Made by a program: the position numbers and the translations under genes. Below, piece after piece: positions 1 through 59,839 of a stretch of DNA of 64,000 nt (position 1 is the stretch's first letter; each line of letters begins with the position of its first letter). The notes under the pieces are model-generated. The model did no database searches, had not been told where the DNA came from, and worked only from the letters and a program-made list of their open reading frames with translations. Origin of the DNA: Amphiscolops sp. MND2022 (taxonomy: Eukaryota); the NCBI GenBank assembly GCA_964187785.1, contig OZ076409.1:11286001-11350000 (forward strand), read 5' to 3'.

Positions 1-1410
1 TGTGTTTCACTATGTGGGGTGTTTGTTTTCATTTCAGGTTGTATGTTATCCGTTGGGACTACGGATCTGAATGTTGTTTTCAGTTTTCTCTATTAGGTTG
101 AAGATGAACTAATTTTTTTTGAATTTCATTATCTCATTGTGATATTTGATTGGCATGGAGATTATCCAGAAAATAAAACCCTGAATGAAAATGACCGTGC
201 GCGAATTGTTAATCAGGCAAGTTTTAGTTTGAAAACTCCCTCAGTTCAAATTCTGCGTTGCGCGAACGTTAACTTTCGTATTCCAAAGTCTCCTACAAAT
301 TATTTAGTTGTTCTGTAAGTAAAGTTTAGAATAACTCAAAGGTCTTTGATTCTTCCGTGTCCCAGTCCTCGGTTGATCTATTTATTCATCACTTTGTTTA
401 CAGTTGTTTTAATATACTTGTAATTAGCCGGAGTAGACGAGTAAAGTCACGCGGCCTAATTGGTTCAAATCTAAAATCAGTTGGTGTAATTTTTATGATT
501 ATTGATAAAAGCAAATGTTTAAGTATTGTGTGTATTTAAATAAAAACCTTACCTGAAAGAATGTACCACTTGATGATACAATAAATCGTGACTGATAATA
601 CTACCACATATCAACCCCTGTTGCTAATACCCAAAAAAACCCAAGAGGCCGTTGGCCGTACATGTCAACCATTATTATGAAATGTCATGTAAACTTACTG
701 ATGCATTTAATTCTATACGTATGTTGTTCTAGTTTAGTCAGCACGCCCCCGGACTTTTATTAGGTGCTTTGATCTTGCCGTACTCATAAAAAACGGTGAT
801 GTGATTAAACTTTTTATAGAATTGATGGTTCCATACTTATGTCTGGAGCTATTTTCAGACTACATTTTCCTGAGTGTCATGCCCTGCTGGGTATTTGAAG
901 ACAATCAGAAGACACAATTGTTATAAGATTCATACAATAAAAGGTACTTTTGTCAAAGGTGATACTTCAAAGTTGGAAATTTGAATTACAGAAAAAATTT
1001 AAATATTCCTCTTGTACTCTCACTAATGCCTTCCGCCAGAAGACAGAACGCTAAAGCTAAAAAATCTAGAGAAATGGATATTTTATCTAATTATGGCAAC
1101 ATGCACATAGTGCTAGGAGAGGGAAATGCAAACTCCATTGAAAGAGATCTTGATAATGTTATAAATGGCCCAGAAAGGCACCAGGACTTCAATACCTTAC
1201 CTATTAGAAGAAGATCATCTCAGGAAAATGAGATCAGGAATTTAGATAAAAGAAATGGCCCTGATAGCCAAGACGGAAGTGAAGATTCCATTGAAATTTT
1301 ATGAAATGAATTTATTGCTAGACTGTCCCAAAAGATGAATTCACAGCTAGTGCAGACACAGATCAATAGGGCCATTTGTTCAGCCATAAATGATAGAGTA
1401 ATACTTGCTG
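1..1410 (+). mobile_element. Truncated LTR-retrotransposon fragment carrying the 5' end of a Gag-like ORF (ATG 1026)
   Basis: Peptide from 1026 (MPSARRQNAKAKKSREMDILSNYGNMHIVLG) aligns by eye with the LTR-encoded ORF start at 13841 on the minus strand (MPSTRKQKAKEKRSRQSDVLSDIENLDVMLG). Premature stop at 1302-1304. Both boundaries are approximate. Confidence 0.6.
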
Positions 1411-1859: not shown

Positions 1860-2190
1860 TGTCGATACGCTCCTGATTGTGAGAACTTGATGTTCTCAGA
1901 GCGTTTTCTCCCTCGAGGCGAAAGGTAAACTGTTGGATTAGTGTCGATAATAACCCTTTAATCTCGTTCATTTCGGGTTTTAATTTCGCCATTTGGCCAT
2001 TCATTTCCGCTTATTAACTCAAACTAACTCCGTTCTGATGAGTTTCAGATGAATTTGAGTCGGAGTCTGCGTTTACGGCATTGTTTAGGCCAGAATCCAT
2101 ATTCAGATGAATTTTAGATGAATTTACAAAAGTGCAAGAATTATTGATGATCTTTCCACTTCTAAGTCTACTAGGAGAAACTACACTCAT
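1860..2190 (-). pseudogene. LTR-encoded Gag-like N-terminal ORF (110 codons, two adjacent stops)
   Basis: Manual translation: MSVVSPSRLRSGKIINNS…GVSLS**AEMNGQMAKLKPEMNEIKGLLSTLIQQF…HNQERID+A. It has an RLRSG-type start and a coiled-coil-like stretch, and runs to the LTR terminal CA. Confidence 0.55.
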
Positions 2191-2239
2191 ATATGCAATC
2201 GAGAAGAATTTGATTTTTCTGAAAAAAGGAATTTGATGC

Positions 2240-2259
2240 TAAGAGAGAGAGAGAGAGAG
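2240..2259. repeat. (GA)n microsatellite
   Basis: About nine consecutive GA units. Confidence 0.85.
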
Positions 2260-3032
2260 TAAAATAGGAGTCGAAATCAAGGTTTAGTTGCAACTGGTTA
2301 CAAAGGTAGGAAGTAAGTTAAAGAGCGCCTTTTTTCGCTACTCAAGTTGCGTCGACTAGTCGAATTTGTCACCTACGGGTGTGTCACCCTACTGGATTAT
2401 CAATTATCGCACTTTTAACTTAATCTTGGACTAGTGCGGCGAGGTGATAATTGTCACGTCGCTCCAATTCACCAACTTCAGTAGTAAGGTTCCATAATGC
2501 AGCAGATCAACATAATTGGCGAATTATAACCTCTATTCTTCATTGAGAATGAATTGATATGATAGCAAAGCGCTTGATTAATACCTGGTGGATTTACGAT
2601 GCTAAAAAGCATTTGTGATGATGTTAAGTTGAACAATAAGAGAATGACCAAATTTCGATGGATAATTGATGCGTGATGAATTATGCATGAAAATGGATAG
2701 GGCCCTTCGGTCTTAGAGGCATCGATTTCGTTGCCCCTGATTTTCCATCCCTTTTCCATCCAAGGTAGTGAAATGATTGTGAAATCATCAATTTCTCTTC
2801 AGAGAGCACGCAATGGTTGTAAGCACTTATTGACTGCTCTTATTTGATCACTAGCACCTTTTAAATGATTGTACTACGCGGGATCAGGTCCTCAGGTTGA
2901 TAATAATTACACTTGCGATAAGCAAGTGTTATGGGAAGTGCGGTTTTTCTTCCGCGCGACAACTCTCTAGTTTCAGACCGCAAGTCGCATAGTCTGAATT
3001 TGTGGCGTCATAACTATCATCACTTGTGGCAC

Positions 3033-3647
3033 CTAACTAGCATCATAATATCTTACATGTAGCTAATACTAGAGTAAATCAACATTACATGAAGTGGCAG
3101 CATCAATTTCCAGCAAAATAAGATTTCTGACCTAGCGTCAGCGTGACTGCATGCATTGGTCCGTTCCGAGTTCTGATTCGCCAGGAAATATTTAGACAAC
3201 GCGTCAATTCGACTAGTGTTGGGACAGTTGAACGCGTTTCCAATCCTTCAACCACTTTTGAATGCTATTAAAGCCCGTTACTGCATTGTACATTGATCAA
3301 TTACAAATATATTGCACTTGGATTAATTACCGCGCTGTCAAAGTATTAGAGTTACTAATCAAATGAAATTATAGAAGTTGAAGTAGCAATAAGTACAATA
3401 TTCTAACTAATTTAGAGTAATACCTTGCTGTCAAATTGACCAAAGGTCGAAATATTAAAATACAGTATCTAGTAATTATGTAATTGTTGATCTAGTCAAA
3501 TTTACATGAGATCACATTTGAAATGAAATAAATAACGTAAGTTGTATTGTTTTCAGTTGCTTCATATTGGGAGTACTCCTGGTCCAGGATTACTTTGATC
3601 ATTCTCCGACACGATTTGATAGTACATGCCGCCACAGGCGGCAGCCT
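3033..3647. repeat. ~615-bp direct repeat, copy 1 (copy 2 at 14131-14746)
   Basis: ctaactagcatcataat…acaggcggcagcct is colinear with 14131-14746, with scattered substitutions. Confidence 0.95.
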
Positions 3648-4408
3648 CGTCATTCCCCGGGGGATTAAGATGAGGGACCAGGCCTTCATACCATCTTGGA
3701 AGGCTTGACGTCTGGCTAATCTTTGGTCGTAGGTTTCGCCTCGCACATGAGTCCCTTCAAGATAGCCCAGAGTTATCTCTTCTTTGATCTCGTGGTAGGA
3801 TTTGCCGCAGACCACACAGCCAGTGATGAAGGTCTCATTCGGTAGACCGCAAGAACCACCTACTGTAATTGCTAAGCCCGTAATGTGAGGGTTGTGCGTC
3901 CATGGGTTACATTTTGTTCAAATTGGGGATAATTTTCGTAATGATAGGATGGCATCTGATCAATAGGTGGGGGCGAAGCTGGCGACTCAACCTCTGGAAT
4001 GAGTTGGCTGCAAACAGCGATTGGGTGTTCCCCAATTGCTCGATTAGCATAAGTAGAAGGTGGGTTGCCAATAATCCAGTTGATCAGTTCATCTGACGGT
4101 TCCGTGAAAGTGCTAGCGTCCTCTAGGAATGCCTCCGAGGGCAGGCTCAGGTCGTTAAGACATTGCGTCAAGTTCGCTATCATTGCTCTTCCAGCTAAAA
4201 GTTGCGGGGAGAATGGCGGATGCTCATAATAACATGCCAACAATTGTATGTCGTCGTCTAAAGATTCTCGGTCCTGTAGGTCTTGCACCGATGTAACAGA
4301 ATCAATCTCCATATTTTCTTCCGAAGACGCATAAGATAGGCTGACCAGTGATCTAGGATGTTCTTCGATCTCAAATTGTAGAGACATGGTTTCGCGACAG
4401 CGATTCAA
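3492..4408 (-). pseudogene. Unknown accessory ORF inside the putative LTR (frameshifted; acidic N-part, CxxC in C-part)
   Basis: ORFs 3872-4408 and 3492-3815 are adjacent on the same strand. The latter is preceded in frame by NETFITGC, giving GCVVCGKSY. No family recognised. Confidence 0.5.
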
Positions 4409-8600: not shown

Positions 8601-10128
8601 TGTTGTGTCAGGAGTTGCTGACTAACTGGGGTTCCGTCCTGGAGTATTCGGGTTCAGCTTCTCACTCAGGAGATGCAGGAAGTGAAGAACCAGGTAATGC
8701 TCTCGAGTCTACTGTACTGAGGGTCTGTCCTTACCCGACATTAGGCAATTGGTCTGATTCCTTTCAGGCACAGAGCTTGGAGTGGTCTATTGTGTATGAC
8801 GACCTGTTCACTACCAAACTTGAGCTTTTCCAATTTCTGGCACGGGATTGTTTGTATATTTTATTTTCAAACATAATAATGTTAATGTCTTGAGAACTAT
8901 CTCTTGGGAGATTTTCCTTTATCTAAGCTCGTCCCTCTATACTGTCTTGTTATAATGTATGCGTGAGTTGTCCCTCTTAGTGTACTTTACGTCTTACTTA
9001 CTGCATTAATGAGTGGTTTGTGGTGTTTAGACGCAAATAGCTTCACCATCAGTCTCAGCGGACGTAAAGACCGCAACTGCTATCTGTATCGGCAACTGTG
9101 TCAGTACCTGTTCAGACTTGCCCGAAGGTGTTCTAATCCTTCGGATTTACCAGACGACCAGAACTGGCCGGCTATATTGAACCTAGACATCAAAACTGTA
9201 ACAGCACTCACTGTCTCCGAGTTCATCTCTCGGATCAAATTAGGTCCCAGACTCCGGATCTCATGCAGGGCTATGGCCGAAAAGGACATCCGCGACAAAT
9301 TGGATCAAGGATTGCCCATAGGTGCACTAGCAAACAAGAACAGGGACGATTTTGGAAGGTCTACCCGAAGCTATATCTCTCTTTTCAGTTCTGTCCAAAA
9401 CCAAAAAACTCTTGCAACTGATTTAATGAAAGAGCTCGGCAGTTTTAATTTGGATACACTGTTACATGACCCTCTTCCACACGCAGTCTACTGTTTTTCT
9501 CGGCTGTTCACTAGCTTCCGCCTACGAGGATACTTTTCGCGTTTGACCGAAAGACAGAATGTCCGGAAGAGTATGCGTCCTTTCTTGATGATCTTCGACG
9601 CAAGTATCCTGAATTGCACCAACCAACGCTCTTCGTCCTGAATACCGTTGGTTTCCTGATTGATCAAACTTCCTTACAGAGTCGCCCTTCACTACTCAAG
9701 CTTTTTCGTCTGGCTTGTTTGTGTCTTGATGAGCCTTTCCAGACCTTACCACCTGTCAAGTTTGGCTCAGTGGATTCTGATGATCCCACAAGTGGTTTCG
9801 TAGATGTAGTGTTGCAAGTGCAGTCCTATTTCCAAAATGTGCCTAATAGTATAGAGTCCATCAACTCAGATGTTTAAACGTCAGATTTTTTAGTCCCTGG
9901 GACAGTGTAGATTTCTTTGGTCGTACTGGGATCCTTGAACAGTTATATCCCAGTAGTACATGCCGTCGCAGTCAAATTTTGGATCCTGTGTCCAATGTCT
10001 CTGATGCCACTAAGCCCGTTAGCTCTAAGAAGTCCGGAGTGTCAAAGAAGATGAGTCACTTGCTAACTGGGAAAGAGTTAACCCAATCAGCCGAGAACTT
10101 ATTGTCTGCAAGCAGTTCTAAATTTTAA
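5627..10128 (+). pseudogene. Multi-exon C2H2/BED-like zinc-finger gene antisense to pol (disrupted)
   Basis: Long frame 5840-7846 (ORFs 5876 and 6845 share a frame, separated by one TAG). Phase-consistent GT-AG introns at 7847-8023 (phase 0), 8512-8560 (phase 0) and 8694-9030 (phase 1). Motif FYCQICKGNIS…RLHSPERHL. Possible first exon ATG 5627 with a donor at 5643; 5' structure is uncertain. Confidence 0.65.
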
Positions 10129-10339
10129 TTGTACATATGTACAATTGTTTCTAGACTGCGTATTTGTTTATTTTCTCTTAGTTGCAGAATTTATATTAAT
10201 TAGATTGTATGCTTGTATTCTTAGTCATCTGTTTGTCTTACTTTTGACACTTAGTTTTGTTCGGTGTGAAAGTCGGACGAAGCCCCATAAAGATACCATT
10301 TATTGGTAAAGAATTCACGGGGCTATGAATTCAATTTTT

Positions 10340-13025
10340 CTGTTTTCATCAGTAAAGTTGGGGGTAGGGTTAGGGCGTAATTTTTATTTTCCTCCCCTGG
10401 GACTTTCAGTCTCTACAACGGAATCATCTGTTTTTTTTTGTCTGATAAATCGGGGACGATGATATCCTTCCCTCGAGATTTTGGAAAATCAGAATATCCT
10501 GCCTCTGAGATGCTCTTAGAGATGGTTGCATCAGTTTCTAAATCAGTAGTTGATTGCTGTCCAGTTGACCTAAGGTCCGTGTCAGCCGCAGTTTCGGCCG
10601 ACTGCTCAGGCAGTTGCTCAGACTCAGCTGAGTTGGTATCGTGTTGCAGTCTAGCGGACCGAAGGTCCAATTCGTCGAGTTCAATTCCCCGCTGCTCAGT
10701 AGCAGCGTCATCAGTATTTTCGTCGCGTGGCGTGGACCGGTGGTCCAAATCTGTAATTATTACGTCAGGTTGATCAGAATCAACTGGGGATTCATCAGAA
10801 GTGTTTGGTAAGTCAGAATATGAGGGGAAATCATCAAATTCTGCCTCCCAAGAAATAACATATAAAACATCTTGTTGAACAATAATTTCATCGTCAGCTT
10901 GGAAATTGCCTTCGAGGCGGACATCACGTAACTCAGTGACTGGAGTGTGTTTTCGTAAACGTATATGATGAATAATTTGCGTTTTATTAGAGCTGAGTTT
11001 GCGGACAATGTTATTGTCGTTCGGTAGGACTTTTTCGATGACATAGGGTCCAATCCACCGAATTTCTCGGAACGGAATTTTTGATCCCTGGTGGTCCGCT
11101 AGCGGCTGTAGTATGAAACAATAGTCTCCCTGTTGCAATGGAGCTAGTTTTGCTTTTCGATCATATTATTCCTTGCACTTTAAGTACGATTGCATGATAT
11201 TGTTCTTTGTCGTGTCAATATGAAGTTGAGTACGCCTTTGCAATTCATCAGCGAAATCTGTGATTGGTAGGATTTTCGGGTTGGGATTTAATCCTAACCT
11301 ATGGTCTAATATGTTATACGGCACTCTGCCATGAAAAATCCTGGAAGGTTCGCATCCTAGGCTTGAATGATAGGTGGTGTTGTAATTGAGAACAGCCAAT
11401 GGAAGATATGCCATTGGCGACGGTTTTCACTAGAAGCCATTTTAAGGTTGCCCTTGAGGCTGGCATGAGTTCTTTCTAGTTTACCTATCGTCTGAGGATG
11501 CTTCGTTGTTGCGCATTTCATCTGAATACATAGTATTTTTGCAACCTCTTCGACTAGACGTGACGTAAAGGCCGAGTCTTTGTCAGTGATCAGCGTTGTC
11601 TGAAGGTAGGTATGCCTCGTCATAATGTCAATGAGTACTTTTGCTGTGCTGGAGACTGAAGCGTCAACGACCGGATAAGCAAATAGGTATCTGGAGAAGA
11701 CGTCTAGAGCGGTAATGATACTTTCATATCCTCCACTTGGTGGGAGATTAGGTAAAAAATCAATTTGTAGGGCCAAGATTGCATTCAGACAAATTGAGTA
11801 GTTCAGGTGTTATCGATGGATTTTTGATTTTTTTTTGTCTTTTATGCATATATCGCATGTTTGAACCCACCTTTTGACGATTTTTGCAAATCCAGTAGAG
11901 TAGTATTTTTGACGGATCTCATGTAGCATTTTGGAAATTCCCGGAGGTTTTTTTCGCGGTTTCATGTAGTGATTGAAGTAGTTCAGTTAGGAGGTGTTTC
12001 GGTAGCAGCGGGTGGCGGAATTGGACGTTGCTTGTTTCATCGTAATAGTCTCTGAAGATGATGTCTTCATGTACGACAGACGGTCCAGCTGACGGCAGTA
12101 ATATCGGTAACGTGAATCTTGTTGCAAAATGGATTCTGAGTATTCTTCTTTTTGTATTTTGAGACGTAATTGTTGTAAGATGATGTCATTCTGTTGTTCA
12201 ATAGCCATACTGGTTGGTTTTGCTAGTTTCTGGAGAGTTGGGGTTTGGGCGTAAGTTCTATTGTGTGTACTCAATTTGTCTAACAAAACGTCAGGAAGTT
12301 GATTTGTCGGGATGACCTGGCGTCCTGTTTCCGCTTCCAATTTTGTTCCTCTGTTTCTTCATTTTCGTCTGTGTAGAATATCTGATCTTTTCCAGTGACT
12401 CCAGCTGATTGAATGTTGAGTTCGATGGGCGTTGTTGAGATATCTTCTCGTGTACGGAGTATGAGTTTCTCTTCGGGACAGATTTCTAGGTGCGACAGAT
12501 AGTCAGCTGCGGTGTTGTTTTTGCCAGGTATGTGTGCTATGGTTAAATTGAACTGGGTAACGTAGTCACATGCGCTCCACAGTTTTGGTGGAATGATTTT
12601 AGTTTGAAAAAAGCGAGTGACCGATTTGTTGTCTCTTAGAATTATCACCGGATTCGGGGTCCCCCAAAAGATATGGCCAAATTCTTTAAATGCAAAGAAT
12701 ATCGCTAGGAACTCTTTTGCATATATGGACATTTTCAATTGGGCGGGACTAATGGTCTTGGATCCATATGCTACTGGTGCAAAGGCTTTTCGCGTTGAAC
12801 TATATTTCTCCATTGGATCGTCCTCGATGAGAACTGCATAACCTGCCGCCGAGAAACTACCATTAGTCATTAATGGTATCTGTTTGTTGGGCAGAGGTTG
12901 TTTGAGTGCAAGTTCACAGCATCGGTCAAGAGCTTTGTTGATCTCGGTGACTTGTTCTAACAGATCAAGCGTCACTATGACCTTAGCTTCGTTTTTCAGT
13001 AGTTTGAAGAATGAAGTCAGTTTTT
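10340..13025 (-). pseudogene. pol: Gypsy pol remnant: RT end/connection, RNase H, integrase, GPY region and acidic tail
   Basis: RNase H motifs LMTNGSFSAAGYAVL, YAKEFLAI, RDNKSV, HIPGKNNTAADYLS. Integrase motifs LQIDFL…ALDVFSRYLFAYP…ITDKDSAF…GKLERTHASLK, then RWIGPY. Multiple frameshifts. Confidence 0.93.
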
Positions 13026-13841
13026 CTGAAAGTCTCGGGATGTAATAACGATTTGTTTCGGGATGGTGGTATCAAGCGTGTCATCGTTGACACACTGTTG
13101 ATGGAAAGTTTTATTTCGGGATTGCATGGGCCGTCTGGTCAGGAATTCAGGGACCATCTGAGGGGTAAGGTTGGCTCCTGTCACAATGTCGTAACCATTT
13201 TCGTCGTCACTATAGCGAGAATCCAGTGAATTCTCTCTACAATGACTTGTCCGGTTACTTCTCATCGTTACTAACCTGGGAAAATTATTTTGAACATCCT
13301 CAGCCAAGTGGCTGACGTTTTCTGGATGCAGTCTATTTGACTGAAGGTCATGCTGAGGACGAACCTGGCTGGAATTACTTGGATGCAGTCCATCTGACCG
13401 AAGGTCCAAATTTGCACTTTATCTGAATTTTGAGTTTTAACAGCAATTTTGATGCTTGGTAACACCTTTCTCTCAATCACAGCATTGAAAGCATCCAGTA
13501 TCTTGGAATTTAGGCTTGTTTGCATTTCCTCAAGTTTTCTGGACATTTGTGAAAAAATCTCAGAACTAATGGCTCCGCTAGTTTCAACAGCCATTCCACT
13601 TTCCACTATTTTCGCTAATATTTGTATTTAAATAAGATCTGTAATCATTTTCATTATGATTTGAACTTTATTTTCGTCTATTTGACTCTCAGTCAATTTC
13701 ATTCTCACTTGCTCTATCTTGTACTTCGCTGTTATTTCTTTGATAACTTCCTAACATAACATCTAGATTTTCAATATCTGACAAGACGTCAGACTGGCGG
13801 GAACGTTTCTCCTTAGCTTTCTGCTTTCTAGTTGAAGGCAT
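13025..13841 (-). pseudogene. gag: Gag-like ORF 5' portion; starts inside the 5' LTR and is fused by deletion to the end of RT
   Basis: ATG 13841 MPSTRKQKAKEK…, continuing through ORFs 13271-13606 and 13017-13409. It crosses the LTR/PBS junction at GYD|IVTGA. Confidence 0.6.
13173..13186 (-). promoter_or_regulatory. Primer-binding-site-like sequence TTGTGACAGGAGCC
   Basis: Immediately follows …TTACGACA. One mismatch from a TGG start; resembles the tRNA-Leu-type PBS TGGTGTCAGGAG. Confidence 0.55.
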
Positions 13842-14763
13842 ATTTTAAAAGAGGAGTTTGGGTTCAACAAGGAATTGTCAGAAGAAACAAAAGAACAAAT
13901 TCGTGTATTGAGTGTATTTCGCTTTATCAATGAATGATCAGTTTACAATAAGTTCCGAATATTTATAGTTACAACAGCATTACAAGCATAAATTTGTGTG
14001 TCAGGTAGCTAAATTTATGTTGAAGTCAGGCTAAATATAGCTTTAGCCCAAATATTAAATCGTCATATTCTAAAAATAGATTGGCAGAGTTGACATTACG
14101 TCATTTTGGGAAGGGAGGTATAAATAGTTTCTAACTAGCATCATAATCTCTTACATGTAGCTAAACTAGAGTAAACCAACATTACATGAAGTGGCAGCAT
14201 CAATTTCCAGCAAAATAAGATTTCTGACCTAGCGTCAGCGTGACTGCATGCATTGGTCCGTTCCGAGTTCTGATTGGCCAGAAAAAATTTGGACAACGCG
14301 TCAACTTGACTGCAGTGTTGGGACAGTTGAACGCGTTTCCAATCCTTCAACCCTTTTTGAATGCTAATAAAGCACGTTACTGCCTTGTACATTGATCAAT
14401 TACAAATATATTGCACTTGGAATAATTACCGCGCTGTCAAAGTATTAGAGTTACTAATCAAATGAAATTATAGAAGTTTAGGTAGCAATAAGTACAATAT
14501 TCTAACTAATTTAGAGTAATACCTTGCTGTCAAATTGACCAGAGGTCAAAATATCAAATTACAGTTTCTAGTAATTATGTAATTGTTGATCTAGTCAAAC
14601 TTACATGAGATCACAATTGAAATGAAATAAATAACGTAAGTTGTTTTGTTTTCAGTTGCTTCACATTGGGAGTACTCCTGGTCCAGGATTACTTTGATCG
14701 TTCTCCGGCACGATTTGATAATACATGCCGTCACAGGCGGCAGCCTGCGACACTGGCATGACA
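13187..14763 (-). repeat. 5' LTR (1.58 kb, mosaic)
   Basis: TGTC…GACA termini with a PBS-like sequence next to it. TATA-like CTATAAAT at 13968-13961 upstream of ATG 13841. Contains copy 2 of the 615-bp block. Confidence 0.6.
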
Positions 14764-18337: not shown

Positions 18338-18537
18338 NNNNNNNNNNNNNNNNNNNNNNNNNNNNNNNNNNNNNNNNNNNNNNNNNNNNNNNNNNNNNNN
18401 NNNNNNNNNNNNNNNNNNNNNNNNNNNNNNNNNNNNNNNNNNNNNNNNNNNNNNNNNNNNNNNNNNNNNNNNNNNNNNNNNNNNNNNNNNNNNNNNNNNN
18501 NNNNNNNNNNNNNNNNNNNNNNNNNNNNNNNNNNNNN
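18338..18537. other. Assembly gap (200 N)
   Basis: Run of N. Confidence 1.
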
Positions 18538-19828
18538 GACTCGAACCCGTGAGTTAGCAATTGTCTTCTATAAATCTACCAATCGAAATTGGAAGTAAGT
18601 AACCACCACGCCACTGTGACAATGGGAGTGGTAATCTAAAATCTTTATATTTACGCAGCTGAATTTTCACAGCTGAATCTAATGTATTATTCAACATTAC
18701 CTCACATGAATTATATAGGCAATTTGATTGCATTTGATGCGGCTTTGGTCTTGGTATCCATTGAGCGTGGTAACTCAGCAGACCCAAAGTCCGGAAGCTT
18801 TGATTTGCAAAGAATTACTTCCTTTGAAATTGGTTTCTATCCAGGACAACAAAAGATATAATTTTTGGTGACGAATTCATTTTCAAGTACCACCAAATAT
18901 CTTTTGTAATAACAAAGACGGTCAGAATCATCTGGTCTGAAGCTGCAAACTATTGACAAACTTGAAACAGTTTGCAGCGAGAAAAAGTTGATATTTAGAA
19001 AAGTAGACTTTGTTAATACCGAATTACTGAAGTATCACCAAAAAGCTCTCTGAATTTTTGCTACTTGTTTAGGGTGTAAGTTTATGAAATTCTATACTCA
19101 TATCAGCTACTAATGCAAAGCTTGGAGTTTTCTCCTCTGAAGTTTCATATTCAAGATAAATGCTGAACCTGGTTCTTCGAAACTCTCTGATAACTAGTAC
19201 CCCTAAGTTCTAATTTTCTATCATCAAAGGTTCAGATTTGAGGAAGTTGTTTTAGACTAGTTGCAAACTTTTAAACTGAATATGACTGTGGTGATTTATT
19301 CTAACTGACGATGGTGAAGAGTGGTAGTTCCTGCTGTTGAATTGTTTCTCGGTGTACGATTTGATTTGCTCTTCGATTTTCTAAAATAAAAAAGGCTGAA
19401 AGTCAATTTTTGCTTACTTTTTGAATCGGTCCTTGACTTTCTAATAGAGTATGAAAGTCAATTTTTGCACCTCTGAGCAAGTATTATGCTTTTTCCAAAT
19501 TTGCATTTCCACACTTTCCAACCTTCAACTGTTTCTCAGAATTTTGAAAGACAAATTGCCTAACCCTCAAATATTTTTGGAAAGACTGATTTGGACGAAT
19601 GAATTGTTTTTACTTCCAAAAAAGTTTTCTGAAGATTTTTTGGTTTAATCGTTTTTCGTGTTTGGATGGAATCAGAAGGATGAATTTGTTCCAAAGAGGA
19701 CTCATCAAAATTATTTGCCACCTGCAAGCTTATTCACTGTTTTGGAGTTTTATCTGAACGATGTTCGCATTCTCCAAATTCATTGCTTTTTTTCCACTGG
19801 AGTCTGTTTAATTTTAAACTTTCGCCGC

Positions 19829-35911: not shown

Positions 35912-36686
35912 AGACAGCAGCGCGGAAGTGAGTGAAAGAAACAAGGCGAAGATTAGAATTTTGAGATAGTTCCTGTCAACCGAGTGATTAAAGCAGAAAT
36001 GAAGCAATCAATCTGATCGCTGCAACAACTCACTACGCGGGGAACAAGAAAGAGTAGTCGTAGTAGTACCGAATTGAAAGTGTGAAGGTGTCAGAGCCCG
36101 TCTCTTTGCACATTGAACGAAGAGGTGTTACCTGGTAAAAATGCGGCATATACGTTCCGGGAGAAAATAGTAACTTTGAAAGAAATTGTAATCGCACAGC
36201 AGGAAACCGACTCCATTTGTCTTGGCTGGTATATTCCAATCATTTTCATTGGACAGAAGACATTTTTTTCTATGGATAACCACCTCCTCATTCCTCAAGA
36301 CAGCAGCGCGGAAGTGAGTGAAAGAAGCAAGGCGGAGATTAGACTTTTGAGATAGTTACTGTCAACCGAGTGATTAAAGCAGAAATGAAGCAATCAATCT
36401 GATCGCTGCAACAACTCACTACGCGGGGAACAAGAAAGAGTAGTCGTAGTAGTACCGAATTGAAAGTGTGAAGGTGCCAGAGCCCGTCTCTTTGCACATT
36501 GAACGAAGAGGTGTTACCTGGTAAAAATGCGGCGTATACATTCCGGGAGAAAATAGTAACTTTGAAAGAAATTATAATCGCACAGCAGGAAACCGACTCC
36601 ATTTGTCTTGGCTGGTATATTCCAATCATTTTCATTGGACAGAAGACATTTTCTTTCTATGGATAACCACCTCCTCATTCCTCAAG
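35912..36686. repeat. Tandem duplication, ~386-bp unit x2
   Basis: agacagcagcgcggaagtgagtg at 35912 and 36298; copies near-identical. Confidence 0.95.
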
Positions 36687-36839
36687 CCAAGCGGGCAATA
36701 ATATTGTGTTTCTTACTTGAAAATTTCTCAAAAACTAATTGTTAAAGTCCATAAAATCTTTTCAGGATGGCTAGGCGCGATATTTTTACATATCCCAACA
36801 ACAAAACAAATTCGTCAAGTTCATAGAAGCAACATATTT

Positions 36840-37250: not shown

Positions 37251-38929
37251 TGACAGGGAAGAAATTTCAGAACTTAATGACGAAGGTTGCTGATGTAAAT
37301 GTTTTCCGAATGGCAACGACAGTTTGCTCCTCTGACACTCGTTGTTTGGAATGTTTCTTGATACAGACAAAAGTTCCCCAAAAGGGAATACTCCTTCAAC
37401 AGCTGTCACGATTGACTAATTGGATTTTGTGGAAAACTTTATCAATGGAATTTTCAGCTGCAATCTTTTCAGAATTTTAAGCACAGAAAAAATATATGTT
37501 TGTGTCCATACATCATTTTTCAGGATGATCTGATGCAAATATTTCACATACCCCAACATCGAAAAGAGTAGTCGTCGAGTTGCTGAAGCAACATATTACA
37601 TATTTTGAGATTCCGATGAAAAAAGGGCCGATTCAGTAACGGTTTTCATGAGCGATGAATTCTTGCCATTTTGTGAACAATTTTGGAATAAAACACAGAA
37701 CCTGTCCAGTGCACGATCACAGGGAGAATGTCAAAATAGAACAGCTAATACGTACAGTAAATGAACGATTGCGTGCGAATAAACAAATGATGATAAGTTT
37801 GTGCTGTCCGAAATATTTTGCCCTCCGAATAAAAAACGAAACCGGATGGAAGTTCACTTTTCGAAAAACAGTTGGAGAGAGAGCCAAATACCGTAGAATT
37901 GAACGTAAATGGAATGTTCTTGGCTGTTTTAGAAGGTGACTCCTATTTTGAACTGCAGCAATCCGACTTCCAAGAAGACTTGGACTCAGAAGTGCTAGTT
38001 CGAGAACAAGCTAAAGGCTCAAAACTGGAAGGGTTTTTTGACCGCGACGAAGCTAAGGTGATCGAAGACACTCCCCACACAGTCGCAACGCTACCAAAAA
38101 AGTCAGGAAAGCATAAAACATATTATTGTATTCAAAACGAGGCGTCGCTATTTCATCAAGCGAGCAAAACTGGGCTTTAAAAAAGACTGGGAAGAACAGC
38201 CAGCAAGACACCGTCGTGTCTTCAAGTTCGGAGGACGAAGATATAATTAGGAGACAATAAAAAAGAAGTTGTGGCCGGCGATGGCAATTGAGTTTGAAGA
38301 AGTGTCCTACGTTCTCAAGCAGTGTGAATAGTGAGAGGCCAGCAGCCCCCGAGAACGTGAAACGTGAGAGGGAGATAAGACGAGCAAAAGAGCGGGATCG
38401 CGCCTGGTGATAAAGATGCCGTATTCCCTGGAATTAGACCAAATGGAGGGCCAAGCAGAGCATGAGAGGTTGCGCCAATGAGAACGCTGGAGAGAGAGCG
38501 CAAGGCAAGACAAAGAAATGGCATTGATGTAATGCAACTTGAAAGCCAAAGAAAACCATATTAATCAGAAACTTTAACTTTACATTGAGTTTTGAAAAAC
38601 TACATCCTTTCGTTTTGAAACTAACTTTACATAACTTAACAAAAACAGTTTAATTTTGTGGACCTTTATATATTACAGTTGAATAAAAAAATTGACGTAC
38701 ACATATTGTGGATTAACCTTTCTCAATGAAAAGGGGGTGTAGTAGAAGTCATAGTCTATTTGTAAAGATGTGTTTAAAATAATGGTAACAATAATGAGAT
38801 ACCTGTCAAAAGACTTTTTAAAAAGAATCAGTTGAAGAAAAGACTGTATTAGTTCCAATACGTACAGCATCACTTCAACATTCAACACTTTAAGTTTGAC
38901 TGAGTTTCACTCAGTTACCCTCCGACAAG

Positions 38930-39600
38930 AACAGATGAACGAAAAGGAAATGTGTCCAAATCATCAATGCTTGAACTCTATGTTTTGATCACTTGTTCAA
39001 TTTCATTTCAAATAACTCTTTGTCATATTGATCAAAGTATTTTAATTTGCATTTAAGCAATCGGTCCATATTAAATATGACCGTTGCTGTACTCTTGAAT
39101 CAACTGTCATGACAGCGAACAAAGCAACAGAATCATGAATATAGTTAACCACTAAATCATCCAGAAAGTTTCCACTTTTTTCAAAAATTGCAGCAGTTCG
39201 CAACCTGTTGTGTACAGCATGTTGTCGCCTGCATATTAATTTTTTCTCCCATAAGTCGAAACAGAAGGTGGCATGTCATTTACGTAGAGAACAAACAACG
39301 AAGAACCAAGAACAATTCTTTGGAGCATTGCTTGATACCACCAGTATATCCAATCTGATTGAACATTTTCCCGAACAATTTTTTGTGGCCAAATCATGAT
39401 TAAGCTTTCAAGTAACTGCACTTAATGTTTCAAGTAAACCAAACCTAAGTGCCTTGTGTTTTTAGAGAGAAAAAAGTCGAATGCTGGCGATGAAACTGAA
39501 AAACAGCGGAAAGAAATTTCGCTTAATGGGATCTGAATTCTTTCCAACGATGGATAAAAACGCGTCATTTGAGACAAAGTTTGATTGAAAACCAAACTGT
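38930..39600 (-). mobile_element. Non-LTR (LINE) reverse transcriptase remnant (duplicated at ~41111-41781)
   Basis: LQRIVLGSSLFVLYVNDMP (cf. PQGSVLGPLLF.LY.NDLP), followed by frameshifted YAGDN (cf. YADD). Confidence 0.7.
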
Positions 39601-39971
39601 TTTCGGTTTATGGCTACGTTATTTTCATAAAATGCTCCAATCGAAATAATCTAGTGGCAATGAGCGAGAATTATCTGCATCATTATTTTTGACAACCCCT
39701 GACACTGGCGCCAATAACTGTCCCGGTTTGTTTCCAATTATTGCAATTGCCATTTTGAAAAGAATGAATAATTGCTATTGCTAAACGAAAATAAATTATT
39801 GCCATGGATAAAATGCAAATATTTAAAAATAAATCATTATTTGAACATCCCTGATTGTACATATTACAATTCACATCTCTAGGCTGCCAATTAACCAAAA
39901 AACCTTCGAAACGGTCGTCGAAGAAGTCAAAATCCGAGCTTTTTTCGGACGGAGAGTTTTGGAACTTATTA

Positions 39972-40442
39972 TTTTTAGGAGTCGGAAAAAATTTTCGACT
40001 ACTTATGCAATCGTGTTGTTTTTTTTGTTTTTTTTTCTCCCGACCTTTTCATGAAAATTTCAAATTTCTCAAAAACTGTCCATACGATTTTCACGAAATT
40101 TTGCACAGTCATTCTACACCCAAAGGGGCCCCTGCGTGTGCAAAGGCATCAAAATCGTATGGCTGGGATGTGAGAAACATAGCCAAAATTAGCCCAAAAA
40201 TGGCCAAAAAACAGCCATTTTTCGACTTTTTTCGATTTTCTCAAAAACTGTCCATACGATTCGAACGAAATTTTCTACAGTTATTCTACACCATATTAGA
40301 GTCCTATATGTGCAATGGCATCAAAATCGTATGGCTGGGATGTGAGAAACATAGCCAAAATTAGCCCAAAAAAGGGCCATTTTTCGACTTCAGAAAAAAA
40401 AGACCTAAGCCGACTCCTTTACCGCACATGCGGCTCTGGTTT
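39972..40442 (+). mobile_element. Helentron/DINE-1-like element, second family (copy at 42153-42623)
   Basis: T-run + aggagtcgg at the 5' end; ccgactcct + hairpin ccgca-ca-tgcgg + ctctggtt at the 3' end; internal ~177-bp tandem repeat. Confidence 0.65.
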
Positions 40443-43400
40443 GGTAATCTTGGGGAAGTGATTCAATTGCTTCGGTACAAACAAAGTTTTATCAAAAGAC
40501 CAGATTTTTCAATCATCTTCATTGTGTTACCAAGTTTCAATTGGTGCGTATATTTTATCAGGTATCAGCGTTTTCGCGATTTGATTAGAGGCTTTGACAG
40601 GGCATCATTCCATATTTCAGACAATCATTTCAGATAATAGTTTTGTTGCCCTAGCACAAGAATCAGTTGCGGTTTGATTGAGTCTGGTAAACTTGACCCT
40701 CGATGTATTCAACATTTGTAATGATCTCATCCGGAAAAAAACTATGAGGCGTTGCTAACCTCAAATGATTTGGAGATAAGAGCCTGGCTAACGCTAGCTG
40801 ACTGAATTAAGTGCAATAGAAAGAATTGACAACAAACTTTAAAATGGCGTATCATGATGAAGGTATCGTAACTGAACTAGCGGGTGTTGCTACTGTCACG
40901 GTTAAACTGTTACCAGGTACATGACATTTTACGTTTTGATTACTTCAGTCTTACGTAATATGGATACATATAATCTACCACAAGACTACTGCAGCTTTTT
41001 AAAAAGAATCAGTTGAAGAAAAGACTGTATTAGTTCCAATACGTACAGCATCACTTCAACATTCAACACTTTAAGTTTGACTGAGTTTCACTCAGTTACC
41101 CTCCGACAAGAACAGATGAACGAAAAGGAAATGTGTCCAAATCATCAATGCTTGAACTCTATGTTTTGATCACTTGTTCAATTTCATTTCAAATAACTCT
41201 TTGTCATATTGATCAAAGTATTTTAATTTGCATTTAAGCAATCGGTCCATATTAAATATGACCGTTGCTGTACTCTTGAATCAACTGTCATGACAGCGAA
41301 CAAAGCAACAGAATCATGAATATAGTTAACCACTAAATCATCCAGAAAGTTTCCACTTTTTTCAAAAATTGCAGCAGTTCGCAACCTGTTGTGTACAGCA
41401 TGTTTTCGCCTGCATATTAATTTTTTCTCCCATAAGTCGAAACAGAAGGTGGCATGTCATTTACGTAGAGAACAAACAACGAAGAACCAAGAACAATTCT
41501 TTGGAGCATTGCTTGATACCACCAGTATATCCAATCTGATTGAACATTTTCCCGAACAATTTTTTGTGGCCAAATCATGATTAAGCTTTCAAGTAACTGC
41601 ACTTAATGTTTCAAGTAAACCAAACCTAAGTGCCTTGTGTTTTTAGAGAGAAAAAAGTCGAATGCTGGCGATGAAACTGAAAAACAGCGGAAAGAAATTT
41701 CGCTTAATGGGATCTGAATTCTTTCCAACGATGGATAAAAACGCGTCATTTGAGACAAAGTTTGATTGAAAACCAAACTGTTTTCGGTTTATGGCTACGT
41801 TATTTTCATAAAATGCTCCAATCGAAATAATCTAGTGGCAATGAGCGAGAATTATCTGCATCATTATTTTTGACAACCCCTGACACTGGCGCCAATAACT
41901 GTCCCGGTTTGTTTCCAATTATTGCAATTGCCATTTTGAAAAGAATGAATAATTGCTATTGCTAAACGAAAATAAATTATTGCCATGGATAAAATGCAAA
42001 TATTCAAAAATAAATCATTATTTGAACATCCCTGATTGTACATATTACAATTCACATCTCTAGGCTGCCAATTAACCAAAAAACCTTCGAAACGGTCGTC
42101 GAAGAAGTCAAAATCCGAGCTTTTTTCGGACGGAGAGTTTTGGAACTTATTATTTTTAGGAGTCGGAAAAAATTTTCGACTACTTATGCAATCGTGTTGT
42201 TTTTTTTGTTTTTTTTTCTCCCGACCTTTTCATGAAAATTTCAAATTTCTCAAAAACTGTCCATACGATTTTCACGAAATTTTGCACAGTCATTCTACAC
42301 CCAAAGGGGCCCCTGCGTGTGCAAAGGCATCAAAATCGTATGGCTGGGATGTGAGAAACATAGCCAAAATTAGCCCAAAAATGGCCAAAAAACAGCCATT
42401 TTTCGACTTTTTTCGATTTTCTCAAAAACTGTCCATACGATTCGAACGAAATTTTCTACAGTTATTCTACACCATATTAGAGTCCTATATGTGCAATGGC
42501 ATCAAAATCGTATGGCTGGGATGTGAGAAACATAGCCAAAATTAGCCCAAAAAAGGGCCATTTTTCGACTTCAGAAAAAAAAGACCTAAGCCGACTCCTT
42601 TACCGCACATGCGGCTCTGGTTTGGTAATCTTGGGGAAGTGATTCAATTGCTTCGGTACAAACAAAGTTTTATCAAAAGACCAGATTTTTCAATCATCTT
42701 CATTGTGTTACCAAGTTTCAATTGGTGCGTATATTTTATCAGGTATCAGCGTTTTCGCGATTTGATTAGAGGCTTTGACAGGGCATCATTCCATATTTCA
42801 GACAATCATTTCAGATAATAGTTTTGTTGCCCTAGCACAAGAATCAGTTGCGGTTTGATTGAGTCTGGTAAACTTGACCCTCGATGTATTCAACATTTGT
42901 AATGATCTCATCCGGAAAAAAACTATGAGGCGTTGCTAACCTCAAATGATTTGGAGATAAGAGCCTGGCTAACGCTAGCTGACTGAATTAAGTGCAATAG
43001 AAAGAATTGACAACAAACTTTAAAATGGCGTATCATGATGAAGGTATCGTAACTGAACTAGCGGGTGTTGCTACTGTCACGGTTAAACTGTTACCAGGTA
43101 CATGACATTTTACGTTTTGATTACTTCAGTCTTACGTAATATGGATACATATAATCTACCACAAGACTACTGCAGCTTGTTCACGTTTTTCAGGGCAAAA
43201 AATTTTTTTCAGTTCAAAAATTTGTTGTTATTTCACTTGAACAATTTCTTCTCGCGAGAACTAACAGTCTCTCGTTTAGCCATAAATCTAAGAAAGAATT
43301 CAGCAGAAAGGATGTGAACTGAAGGAAAGAGGAAGAAAATTTTGTAACGGCAAGCGCTAAGTGGAGGAACTGATATCATGGATATAGTCCGGGACAAACC

Positions 43401-46724: not shown

Positions 46725-47527
46725 GCAGGTAGAATAGGGCTACCGTGTTGTCCCACTAACCACAGCACTGCCACAAGCCCCCAACTAGCTGTGCTCCTTG
46801 GGTAAAAGGCAGTATCGGTCTTACAGTTTTGGCTTTTTTCGGCTATTTTAGTTCTTTCTGACATTCTCGACTTTTCTCGACTTTGAACAGCGCTAGGCTC
46901 ACCAACTTTTCGGTTCTTATTTAAAAGATAGTTGGGAATATCTTATCACTTTTAAGGTAGAGTTATCAAATCGATGACCCAACCATGATATTAGGACAGT
47001 CCCGTTTTTGTCGAAAATGGTAATTTTCAGTGCGTTTTGCAATTTTCTCAACACTGAAAAGAAGAATTTTCACATGCGGTTTTCACTCAAACACGTTGCT
47101 TCATTTTAAAAACAAAAAAACGCGCAGGTAGAATAGGGCTACCGTGTTGTCCCACTAACCACAGCACTGCCACAAGCCCCCAACTAGCTGTGCTCCTTGG
47201 GTAAAAGGCAGTATCGGTCTTACAGTTTTGGCTTTTTTCGGCTATTTTAGTTCTTTCTGACATTCTCGACTTTTCTCGACTTTGAACAGCGCTAGGCTCA
47301 CCAACTTTTCGGTTCTTATTTAAAAGATAGTTGGGAAAATCTTATCACTTTTAAGGTAGAGTTATCAAATCGATGACCCAACCATGATATTAGGACAGTC
47401 CCGTTTTTGTCGAAAATGGTAAATTTCAGTGCGTTTTGCAATTTTCTCAACACTGAAAAGAAGAATTTTCACATGCGGTTTTCACTCAAACACGTTGCTT
47501 CATTTTAAAAACAAAAAACGCGCAGGT
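46725..47527. repeat. Tandem duplication, ~399-bp unit x2
   Basis: gcaggtagaatagggctacc at 46725 and 47124; GCAGGT microhomology again at 47522. Confidence 0.95.
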
Positions 47528-51450: not shown

Positions 51451-51567
51451 GTCAAATTGTGACTTGTTGAAGCTGACAATGAACTTGTTTCCAAACAAGT
51501 CGTTTACCCAACAAGGCATTTCTTGATGAACTGGTTTAAACTGAAAGCTGAAACATGTTTCACATAG

Positions 51568-52376
51568 CCCTGGTCGAGAAAAAATGCGTTCCTTGCAAGG
51601 ATCTTGCAAGATCCTTGTAAAAATGCAATTACTTGTAAGATCTTGCAAGGAAATTTGTTCCTTGCAAGATCTTGCAAGGAAATGTTTTCCTTGAAAGATC
51701 TTGCAAGGAAATGTTTTCCTTGAAAGATCTTGCAAGGAAATTTTTTCCTTGAAAGATCTTGCAAGGAAATGCTTTCCTTGCAAGATTCTTGAGTTCAATG
51801 TACTTCATACTGAGAAATTATGTGAGAAACGTAGTCGTGATTTGAGAATAATGTCAAAAACGTTAATAACTATTATTTCAGAAGGGTAATTTAACAAATT
51901 GAAAAATAATTTCAATCGAAACATTATGCACAGTCTAATTTCAAATCAATAACTAGAACATAACACAATTGGTTGGAAAAAATTTTCAGAATACTCTGAA
52001 ACTGTATTTTAAATGTTGCGTCACAGAAATGTACTATTACTTTTCAAATAACTTCACTAAGATCACACTTTTAGAGATATTTTCTAGAGTTTGCATCTTT
52101 TTGGTGGTTGAATCCTCTAGTAAGTAAACCCCGTTCTGTGACAGAATCTAATAGTCACGATGCAGTAGTCAACTTGAAGTCAAAAACAATGAATATAAAA
52201 AATAGAAAAATTATTTCACCTTCCAAGAAATTTTTCTCCTTGGAAGAATCTTGCAAGGAAATTTTTTTTCTTGCAAGATTCTTGCAAGATGTCTTGCAGA
52301 AAAATGCATTATCTTGCAAGACCTTGAAAGAAAATCTTGCAAGATCCTTGCAAGGAGCGCATTTTTTCAACCAGGG
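51568..52376. mobile_element. MITE with ~45-bp TIRs and arrays of palindromic CTTGCAAG repeats
   Basis: ccctggt…aaaaatgcg.tccttgcaaggatcttgcaagat is inverted at both ends; ATAG flanks both sides (51564-51567, 52377-52380). Confidence 0.88.
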
Positions 52377-54407: not shown

Positions 54408-54802
54408 TGTTAAGACTCGCGTTTGGGTCGTTGTTTTGGGTCGAATTAATTCTGACAGATTTTGTTGGAGTGTAGAAACTCCTAGTTCCATTTTCCGTTT
54501 CTTCTTCGGTGTTTTCTCATGTTATCCCCGGTTTTAGGTTTTAGCAATTTCAACATTTCCTGCGATTCTTTGAGAAGACTCTTAATTTCCGGGGTTATTT
54601 CCTCTTTCAAAGAAACCCTCAAACTCTCTTGGAGGCTATTTTCGACCCTGGGAGATTTTGGTCTTGAGGGACCCACAATGCTTACGTCCTGTTCCGAGAC
54701 ACAAGGATTTTCTACTACTATTGGTGAAACGAGACCTACACTTACACTTTCGATGCTCTCCTGTTGGTTGTTTTTCCTCATTTGGCTTCTTGTAGTTGAC
54801 AT
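54408..54802 (-). pseudogene. LTR-encoded Gag-like N-terminal ORF (~131 codons, one frameshift)
   Basis: MSTTRSQMRKNNQQ…LRVSLKEEITPEIKSLLKESQEMLKLLKPK, then after a frameshift near 54515 ENGTRSFYTPTKSVRINSTQNNDPNASLN+A to the terminal CA. Confidence 0.6.
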
Positions 54803-57793: not shown

Positions 57794-58923
57794 TAAAAAA
57801 CGTTCACTTTTTTGAACCTTGAGCGGCGCGCCGACTTGGACCGTTCCCGGCTTGTTGTGTGTGCAAAAGACCTATCTTCATTTTCTGTTGAAACTCTCCA
57901 AAGTTATTTTTTGCCAAAAACGTCAGTTAGAAATCCCAGAGATACAAGAAAAAGCCATTAAATGATCTATTTTCAAAATCAGCATCAAGATTTTCGACCT
58001 TGATTGTGAAGATGCTAGCTATTGTTTGAAATCACAGTCATCAAAAAACTTTTAGAAAATTATTGAATTGTAAAACAAAGAAGACCGTTAGTATTTTTTT
58101 CAATCTCTCAGGAGGCTTTGTTTTCTTGAAAATGCTTCAAAAATGAGATATTCAGACATCTTTCATCACTAAAATGATGATTGTAATGGAAAAAGCGTCA
58201 ACTAGCTTTGTGGGATTTTTCAGCAAGTGACTCTTTAGACTGAAAAGATTATTAAAAGAGCAATACGACGTTCATTGTAATTTGGATGAAATCGAAAGGA
58301 ACAATGGTCACTTCAAACTAAAAAGTGAGTCTCAAGTGAGCTGTCAATCAAAAAACGGGAACCGCATTTTGACTGTCAGTTTTTACAAATCATTCCTCCA
58401 TGTTCGTAACTCGTTGCCAAAAACACCAAGACTTCTTGATTTACGTTCAGAATACCTGCCATGCCTATATGGCGTGCTCCTCGAAACACGCTGTGATTGA
58501 AAAGCCACTAAATGATTATTAGAAAGATTTTGAAATCTTGTGGACAAAATGTTTGCATTGTCAATTTTGCGAGCTTTTAGTTTACCTTTTTGTGGTTCGC
58601 CTATCACTAAGTGACCCCCTAAAAGCGGAACACGTTTTTTGTTGAAGTTCAGTGAAGAGAATACAGACAATTTATATAATTAGTCTACCGTATTGTCTAC
58701 CATTTGTACTTTTTATATACCAACCTATGATGCTCTTTTATTAAATACCTGCCACTTTAGTGCAGATGATATTCCATCATAGAGAATTGGTAATGAACTA
58801 GAATACAGTTGATTTTATATGAAAACATCTCTTCGATATCGATGAGCTAGAATACAACATGGGGCAGTCAGAATAGACCCGAAGCTATACACGAGCCACC
58901 CAAAACAACAGACACCATTCACT

Positions 58924-59839
58924 ATGGAAGAAAATACGAGAGACGGAAAAAGCACATAGATGTCAACGGGAACGCAGCAAGCTGGACAAGTACTACCGAA
59001 CGAGACAATGAACAGGATGATTGACCGGACCTGCACCCAAAAGCTCACCATTCCCACGCTAGAAAAGCAAGATCAAGCCAATGCAAGTATGTGGTGGAGA
59101 AAATTCGTCCAATACATAAAGATGACGAAGGAAATAGATTTGTCAACTATGACAAACAGTAAAGAGATCTTACCACAATACTGTGATCAACTTGAAACAG
59201 ATATAAAAGACATTTTTATCTGGGCAATCGGAAAATATGCTATCACGGAAATGACAAAGACGGTCGGGGAAAGAGAACCGAGCTCACTACCACTATACAA
59301 ACTTTACACACTTTTCAGACTACATTTCACACCAGAAAGAAACGTACACCACAGCAGAACCGATTTCTTCGACTTAAAACGGGAAGACGGCGAAACTGCA
59401 GCACGCGTATGGAAACGGATAATGGATGTAGAAAAGAACTGCGAGTTCGAAACAATTACCGCAGCAGAACTCTTAGCATCAAAATTTTTGTCACTTATCG
59501 GTAAATCAACCGGTGATTACGATTTAAAAAAGAAAATCAGAAAAAGTGACATGTCTGTAGAAGCCATAACTGACGCAATACATGAGTACATGAAAAATTG
59601 AACGACTCACCCGAAACAGAAGAAAAAAAGAAAATCCGGTACGTAAATAAAAAACGAAAGCTACATAGGAACAACCAGAAAAACCGGCAAAATTCAAAAA
59701 AATTGACTGTAACCGTTGCGGAGCACCGAACTGGTCACGTCAACACGAATGTCCCGCCAGAGGAAAGAAATGCGCAAAGTGTGGTAAAATTGGCCACTTT
59801 GCCAAATGCTGCCGCACAAATAGAAAAGAGAACCACTTA
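58924..59839 (+). pseudogene. gag: Gag with double Zn knuckle (stop and frameshifts)
   Basis: ORF 58960-59601, plus CNRCGAPNWSRQHECPARGKKCAKCGKIGHFAKCC at 59708 in the pol frame. Confidence 0.88.

Follow-up and report, generated by a model that had tools for sequence, protein, structure and literature searches.

LTRs that carry the first part of gag in an abundant Ty3/gypsy clade

The window and the boundaries of its LTRs

The stretch of DNA analysed here, hereafter the window (64,000 nucleotides, C1:11,286,001-11,350,000), comes from a 1.07-Gb eukaryotic genome whose assembly was searched for relatives of the window LTRs. The window consists mostly of repeats, among them remnants of four LTR families, designated A to D (Table 1). 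The family B element spans 14752 to 3033; a deletion at about 13050 has taken away capsid, nucleocapsid, protease and most of the RT, and the 3' LTR is truncated.

Three of the LTRs hold an ATG from which a frame can be followed to the LTR end. In family A it runs from 2190 to 1860 as 110 codons plus one A, with ERID as the last residues and two in-frame stops. The family B frame (13841 to 13187, 218 codons plus one net nucleotide, ending in GYD) contains stops and internal frameshifts and was also located by tblastn with a natural Gag, while that of family C (54802 to 54408, ending in SLN plus A) has one net frameshift. The four starts (2190, 13841, 54802 and 1026) and the three ends all lie where an earlier note on this DNA had placed them. 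The start at 1026, claimed in that note as a fourth homologous one, turned out to belong to a fourth LTR family on the plus strand (D), whose peptide is homologous to that of B (E 2e-15) with no DNA match between the two in a self-comparison of the window.

Table 1. Features of the window assigned to the four LTR families and to the family B element
Feature	Position	Strand	Remarks
Family D LTR fragment	1026..1407	+	Frame homologous to that of family B; cut off at about 1407, before the LTR end
Family A LTR, 5'-truncated at about 2909	1860..2909	-	No PBS after the end; no target duplication
Family A LTR-encoded Gag N-terminus	1861..2190	-	110 codons, two stops in the window copy
Family B 3' LTR, U3 part only	3033..3652	-	94.8% identity to the 5' LTR; truncated ahead of U5
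Broken antisense ORF in the interval from pol to 3' LTR	9018..10116	+	Relatives of about 390-430 aa
Degenerate pol remnant: RT end, RNase H, integrase	10339..13050	-	
Family B internal gag spacer, start	13050..13186	-	Reaches the deletion at about 13050
Family B PBS, 12 nt	13175..13186	-	Complementary to host tRNA-Leu(CAG)+CCA, one mismatch in the window copy; inside the gag frame
Family B 5' LTR	13187..14752	-	1566 bp, TG...CA; ends set by paired LTRs and target duplications of relatives
Family B LTR-encoded Gag N-terminus	13188..13841	-	About 216 codons; window copy with stops and frameshifts
Family B initiator-like TCATTC	13932..13937	-	30 nt below the TATA-like box, 13/20 copies; predicted start of R
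Family B TATA-like box	13961..13967	-	TATAAAT in 13/20 copies; predicted promoter role
Family C LTR 3' part and Gag N-terminal frame	54408..54802	-	About 133 codons, frameshifted; no PBS after the end

The window contains further sequences. A small unrelated gypsy element at 58653-61648 (+), with 208-nt terminal repeats (98%) and an internal deletion in its RT, has its gag after the LTR, the ordinary layout. Near-identical tandem duplications lie at 38814-43181 (2181 nt, 99.9%), 35912-36689 (386 nt, 97%) and 46725-47527 (399 nt, 99%), and represent either recent duplication or an assembly artefact. The window also holds a 29-nt tandem array of palindromic units (51565-51815), a short element with inverted arms of 60-70 nt that is probably a MITE (62712-63147), and a run of N at about 18340-18545, an assembly gap read as X in translation.

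The positions proposed as LTR ends proved to be shared by copies throughout the genome, where first-look candidates numbered 1862 for family B, 446 for A, 2209 for C and 944 for D. Among the best 40 or so candidates of each family concerned, 31 of 43 non-self matches stopped at query positions 539-542 for the end at 1860, and 37 of 41 at 592-595 for the end at 54408. For the end at 13187 the count was 22 of 40 at 714-716; of the other family B matches, nine entered the PBS, three ended early and six, all tandem copies, ended 8-9 nt later. At C6 27,677,059-27,684,824 (L003-L008), six units of about 1410 nt stand in tandem. The coding half of a family B LTR and its flank are present in every unit, and the first of them is a full family B solo LTR.

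For family B, 30 loci were taken, leaving out five tandem copies, one duplicate, two truncated copies and one deleted copy, plus one 5'-truncated copy for pN/pS; nine of the 30 family A loci were excluded for partial or atypical ends, and 10 of 41 family C and 10 of 40 family D matches were retrieved. A family B LTR pair aligned from TG to CA over about 1.55 kb at 93.7% identity, and the whole element is flanked by an exact 5-bp duplication. Among the 20 family B copies with both ends located, nine are followed by the PBS, two are 3' LTRs, and the nine others all show a 5-bp target duplication (five exact, four with one mismatch). In family A the PBS follows 7 of 21 copies, and 10 of the 14 remaining ones carry a 5-bp duplication, exact or with a single mismatch, their 5' end in this test being the best of a few candidate motifs. 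A family C LTR pair was aligned over 582 nt, start region included. In family D the frame closes at a common LTR-like end, as a codon plus A, in all ten relatives, and the PBS follows none of them.

The ends at 1860, 13187 and 54408 are thus LTR 3' ends, as the earlier note had proposed, and the LTR pairs contain the ATG, so that the LTR does not end upstream of it. The LTRs measure about 1.2 kb in family A and 1.49-1.58 kb in family B.

The reading frame from the LTR into gag

In the 5' copies (nine of family B, seven of A, two of C) the LTR end adjoins TGGTGACAGG(AG), from which no copy departs at more than two positions. This sequence pairs over 12 nt with the 3' end, extended by CCA, of a tRNA-Leu(CAG) gene that ARAGORN called in the host genome, so that what had been described as a PBS-like motif does match a tRNA of the host. 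The tRNA-Leu-like 3' end has 999 exact matches in the genome, and the majority of the 100 listed lie in a tandem array, spaced 230-300 nt apart, on C8 from about 35.587 Mb (L063). No gene was called by ARAGORN on a 601-nt piece of this array, which may be a satellite derived from the primer tRNA.

Above the LTR end, the longest open frame has the phase of full codons plus one A in 18/21 copies of family B, 19/21 of A and 10/11 of C. In natural copies of these families, for which 5' copies were sampled, the gag frame crosses the PBS and goes on into internal gag. By pattern match, the LTR/PBS junction is also crossed by 58 of the best 120 of 398 protein relatives, some of which reach a DUF1759 domain and a zinc knuckle; many of the database matches of 210-260 aa are LTR frames with short flank tails. 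The 3' part of the LTR is therefore a segment of 110-216 codons in frame with gag across the tRNA-Leu PBS in families A, B and C, family D being represented by copies other than 5' ones.

Both the LTR-internal ATG with its gag-like frame through the PBS and the ending of the frames as a full codon plus A at the terminal CA, this last in four families, are borne out by the boundaries and the natural copies. Two details of the original description have to be tempered. The phase is fixed in all four families as had been stated, and this constancy is partly forced, since the PBS reads TGG-TGA in the third phase and leaves only two phases open at the junction. The predicted MVTG junction, in turn, does have its ATG in family B, with a methionine that arises automatically from the terminal A of the LTR and the TG of the PBS.

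The LTR-coded part makes up residues 1-212 of a natural Gag of 567 aa, whose capsid-like DUF1759 domain lies at 308-438; about one third of family B gag is accordingly inside the LTR, and this third does not include the capsid region. A structural model of the protein has low confidence (mean pLDDT 37.6) and shows a basic helix at 5-29, a helix of 55 residues at 83-137, which is its best part (pLDDT about 70), and after it disordered sequence as far as the junction at 212. On this model, the LTR-coded N-terminus would consist of a basic tip, one long helix, probably a coiled coil, and a disordered linker. It matched no family in a Pfam search, reached a best score of 0.76 in an Atlas look-up and gave 1027 matches in a profile search. 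The A and C peptides bear no significant similarity to that of B (best E 0.07); the gag that follows the PBS in A and C is homologous to that of B (E 3e-12 and 3e-15). Because of this missing peptide similarity, the common origin of A and C with B rests on the PBS, the phase and the downstream gag.

The order of pol, PR-RT-RH-IN with a YVDD motif, identifies the elements as Ty3/gypsy. The best matches of the RT among solved structures are the foamy virus and Ty3 RTs, and a short CCCCGG(G/A)GAG, a candidate polypurine tract although only partly purine, precedes both family B 3' LTRs examined (2/2). The DUF1759 match in Gag is barely above its cut-off (27.5 against 25.4 bits). This domain and certain pol profiles are associated with BEL/Pao; the profiles listed for three pol relatives are RT_RNaseH, Integrase_H2C2 and, as a weak match, Integrase_p58_C, and Peptidase_A17 is not among them. 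Several pol clusters have from hundreds to 1547 members, and some pol relatives (P0136, P0145, P0165) contain a dUTPase domain, located in P0136 between protease and RT.

The antisense ORF of the family B element, also present in another copy (L062, 5938-6588, minus strand), encodes a helical protein kept in divergent copies, with four database relatives of 388-427 aa and 46-52% identity to the query. It has no Pfam family, weak recognition in the Atlas and a best structural Z of 5.3 on a low-confidence model. A derivation from a hAT transposase, suggested by a resemblance, was not confirmed.

Selection on the LTR frame was assessed by comparing variants shared by two or more copies, which arose mostly in transposing lineages, with private variants, which are mostly post-insertion. 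In family B, pN/pS was 0.25 for shared against 0.82 for private variants (105 synonymous and 104 non-synonymous against 83 and 273; Fisher p 1e-10; n=20), and shared changes were distributed 47/42/121 over the codon positions. The corresponding values were 0.31 and 0.85 in family A (p 5e-6; n=21), 0.19 and 0.72 in C (p 1e-4; n=11) and 0.20 and 0.86 in D (p 1e-10; n=11). As controls, the other reading frames gave 0.63-3.8 and the LTR sequence upstream gave 0.62-0.81 without an excess at third positions; in eight copies the internal region gave 0.10 for the spacer and 0.02 for the capsid. Within the family B frame the constraint is strongest at codons 1-120 (0.12-0.19) and weaker in later codons (0.40-0.42). 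Between pairs of copies, dS of 0.25-0.98 stands against dN of 0.05-0.22 in 27/28 pairs, and the closest pair has 0.09 for both. The LTR ATG is intact in all 20 family B copies. Shared indels in this family looked adverse as long as private insertions were left in (one in-frame, five out-of-frame); with private insertions removed, one shared gap, of 1 nt, fell in the frame against 13 in U3. The LTR frame was thus under purifying selection, in all four families, while the lineages transposed and not after insertion.

The junction methionine lends itself to a second reading, in which the elements make two forms of Gag. Translation from the LTR ATG would give the long form, whereas leaky scanning or internal initiation at the junction would give a short form that builds the capsid; the LTR-coded part would then act as a regulatory or targeting extension. 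The family B junction ATG has a purine at -3 and a G at +4, and Ty1 p22 offers a precedent for translation from internal AUGs (PMC4551931). However, the conservation of this ATG and of its +4 G is uninformative, since the terminal CA and the PBS dictate both, and several in-frame methionine codons lie between the two starts. We regard two isoforms as rather unlikely; they would in any case be compatible with a gag that begins in the LTR.

Inheritance, recombination and fate of the LTR frame

Transcription of the family B 5' LTR is predicted to start about 95 nt above the LTR ATG, as suggested by the TATA-like box (13967) and an initiator-like TCATTC motif (13937), each being exact in 13/20 copies. 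An upstream ATG precedes the LTR start codon in 5/20 copies and counts against the reading preferred here. Family A shows no conserved TATA or AATAAA. In family B, AATACA at 13909, a possible poly(A) signal, is present in just 10/20 copies; R could thus be extended and include the frame, which would then not belong to U5. Polyadenylation above the ATG, which would make for a short R, was also envisaged and could not be established.

From such a transcript, a single Gag would be translated, with its N-terminal part from the LTR and its capsid and zinc knuckles from the internal region. When a retroelement replicates, the region from cap to PBS is copied first and then passed to both daughter LTRs. 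The U5 of the daughters would thus be copied from the 5' LTR, the very copy that is translated, and selection on Gag would keep the frame, which the two daughter LTRs and any solo LTR would receive as a by-product. Since the translated copy would also be the inherited one, selection is expected during transposition and neutral decay afterwards. In family B the minus-strand strong-stop DNA is predicted to reach about 750 nt. When related RNAs are co-packaged, strand transfer would reshuffle the LTR segment against U3 and the internal region, and the common codon-plus-A end would leave the recombinants in frame. As to origin, a shift of the ancestral PBS/LTR boundary into gag appears likelier than coding sequence arisen de novo.

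Such a layout would imply a long strong-stop DNA, a PBS and an integrase end under coding constraint, and a strand transfer that doubles as a domain-shuffling step. The clade could moreover serve as a natural experiment on the birth of genes from coding exons that LTRs distribute ready-made, with the sequence evidence pointing to decay for most copies.

The earlier note had gone further, seeing in solo and 3' LTRs promoter-plus-ATG cassettes able to seed chimeric or de novo proteins or dominant-negative Gag peptides; in the reading weighed here, these products would matter to the host. Solo LTRs do carry a TATA-like box, an ATG and a stop-less frame, 3/11 family B copies other than 5' LTRs have a complete frame, the first-look candidates are many, and a mouse MT LTR gave D6Ertd527e its promoter and start codon (PMC5538554). 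Against this, complete frames are equally common in 5' LTRs (3/9), read-through beyond the LTR end stops soon, after a median of 14 codons (n=35; the medians of the other phases are 22 and 7), and private variants are near neutral and include stops in all four families (11, 10, 3 and 14), where the values of 0.72-0.86 are averages over sampled copies that could mask a few co-opted ones. The coded fragment also lacks the capsid, which weakens the analogy to Ty1 p22. We therefore consider this use of the LTRs by the host unlikely, and the thousands of copies left behind appear mostly to be in simple decay, with no sign of host use in the sampled sequences. It is similarly doubtful that, with every insertion and solo LTR scattering a promoter and a basic, helical coding exon of 110-216 residues, a subset of these exons is expressed. 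Their helix would then co-assemble with full Gag and limit copy number, as an N-terminal counterpart of p22 that grows with element load, or their frame would be fused to exons of the host and add a new domain for targeting or oligomerisation; strand transfer would meanwhile swap the module in frame between subfamilies.

Exchange of the U5 segment, also put forward in the earlier note, can be followed within family B. Windows of U3 correlate at 0.71-0.88 among themselves and at 0.14-0.53 with windows of the U5 frame, which correlate mutually at 0.29-0.82. Conflict between well-supported splits of U3 and U5 is modest, at one of ten, against none of four within U3 and none of four within U5; between the 3' halves of the two regions it is four of six. 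U5 types that differ by 0.4 substitutions per site are found next to post-PBS spacers that hardly differ, and in one protein the U5 and the spacer are of different types. The U5 and spacer protein trees (21 family B proteins) reject each other with AU p 7e-6 and 6e-51, values that overstate the conflict because the trees are poorly resolved.

These data lend some colour to a broader reading, in which the LTR frame would be a module swapped between distant families and would place different LTR-coded domains on one Gag core. Yet all 18 5' LTRs sampled (nine B, seven A, two C) are followed by the gag of their own family, with no swap between families among them; U5 and spacer distances correlate at 0.73; and spacer and capsid are discordant as well (dS of 0.85, 0.23 and 0.65 in U5, spacer and capsid for one pair), so that recombination also reaches deeper into gag. 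Swapping between distant families thus seems distinctly improbable, and of the exchangeable module only recombination within family B is retained. Finally, that breakpoints of deletions in normal gag genes were mistaken for LTR ends, or that the frames are products of chance, as the degenerate window copies (0/3 with their own target duplication) might suggest, is barely credible in view of ends common to dozens of copies, exact duplications, paired LTRs with the ATG and frame-specific selection, and is refuted by target duplications for A and B and by the LTR pair for C.

Taken together, the LTRs very probably represent four or more related families within a single abundant Ty3/gypsy clade whose gag has its start in the LTR, with the proposed mode of transmission and origin outlined above.

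Comparison with known systems

LTRs are usually treated as non-coding, and annotation tools seek gag after the PBS. Gags of the kind described here would for this reason be called 110-216 residues short, and the solo LTRs would pass as host ORFs. A literature search brought up no description of an LTR that holds 100-200 codons of gag, a weak negative obtained by strict phrase matching over a coverage that ends short of older subscription papers and of Repbase and GyDB; the available parts of PMC5408684 and PMC3286476 likewise contain nothing on a gag segment inside the LTR.

With the animal Ty3/gypsy elements (Metaviridae), the window clade shares TG...CA LTRs, 5-bp duplications, a tRNA PBS, a gag with zinc knuckles and the order PR-RT-RH-IN. 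It differs from them in its LTRs of 1.2-1.6 kb, where the mean LTR of the training sets of six animal gypsy clades is 174-695 nt (PMC3601003), in its lack of a conserved AATAAA and in the share of family B gag held by the LTR. Ogre, Retrosat2 and Retand in plants and Burro in planarians are large gypsy elements as well, whose LTRs are long or which have additional ORFs (PMC6431247, PMC3485330 and PMC11963269). In Retand (PMC11963269), antisense ORFs follow pol ahead of the 3' LTR, an arrangement that the family B element shares. The antisense proteins of the window clade gave no TRP28 match in Pfam. In the portions of these papers available, the extra ORFs are described as separate ones and not as a gag that starts deep in the LTR. 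The LTRs of Ogre, at 1.9-6.5 kb (PMC6431247), are longer than those of families A and B, for which the term giant, used in the earlier note, was an overstatement.

The mouse MT/MaLR case of D6Ertd527e is similar in that a solo LTR supplies a promoter-like region and a start codon. There, splicing joins the AUG exon to sequence of the host, and the co-option was shown (PMC5538554), whereas in the window clade the LTR carries a long piece of the element's own gag, for which co-option would be hypothetical.

Ty1 p22 carries capsid sequence, in contrast to the LTR-coded piece described here, which is N-terminal, capsid-free and known so far as a predicted product. The LTR of Ty1 holds only about 14 gag codons, and Ty1 is a copia element with its integrase upstream of the RT, while in the window clade the integrase comes after RNase H. 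Ty1 p22 and p18 are truncated Gags that inhibit transposition (PMC4551931, PMC8458377), p22 starting internally (nt 1038/1068) and running to the Gag stop (PMC4551931); the Ty1 PBS is inside the GAG ORF (PMC4974528); and the N-terminus of Ty1 Gag is disordered and experimentally replaceable (PMC10372613). Ty1 and the window clade are alike in a gag that starts upstream of the PBS and in a PBS within the ORF. They differ in that Ty1 is primed by tRNA-iMet and has the copia order, whereas the window clade has 110-216 LTR codons, tRNA-Leu and the gypsy order. The layout of these elements is a much enlarged Ty1-like arrangement in a gypsy clade.
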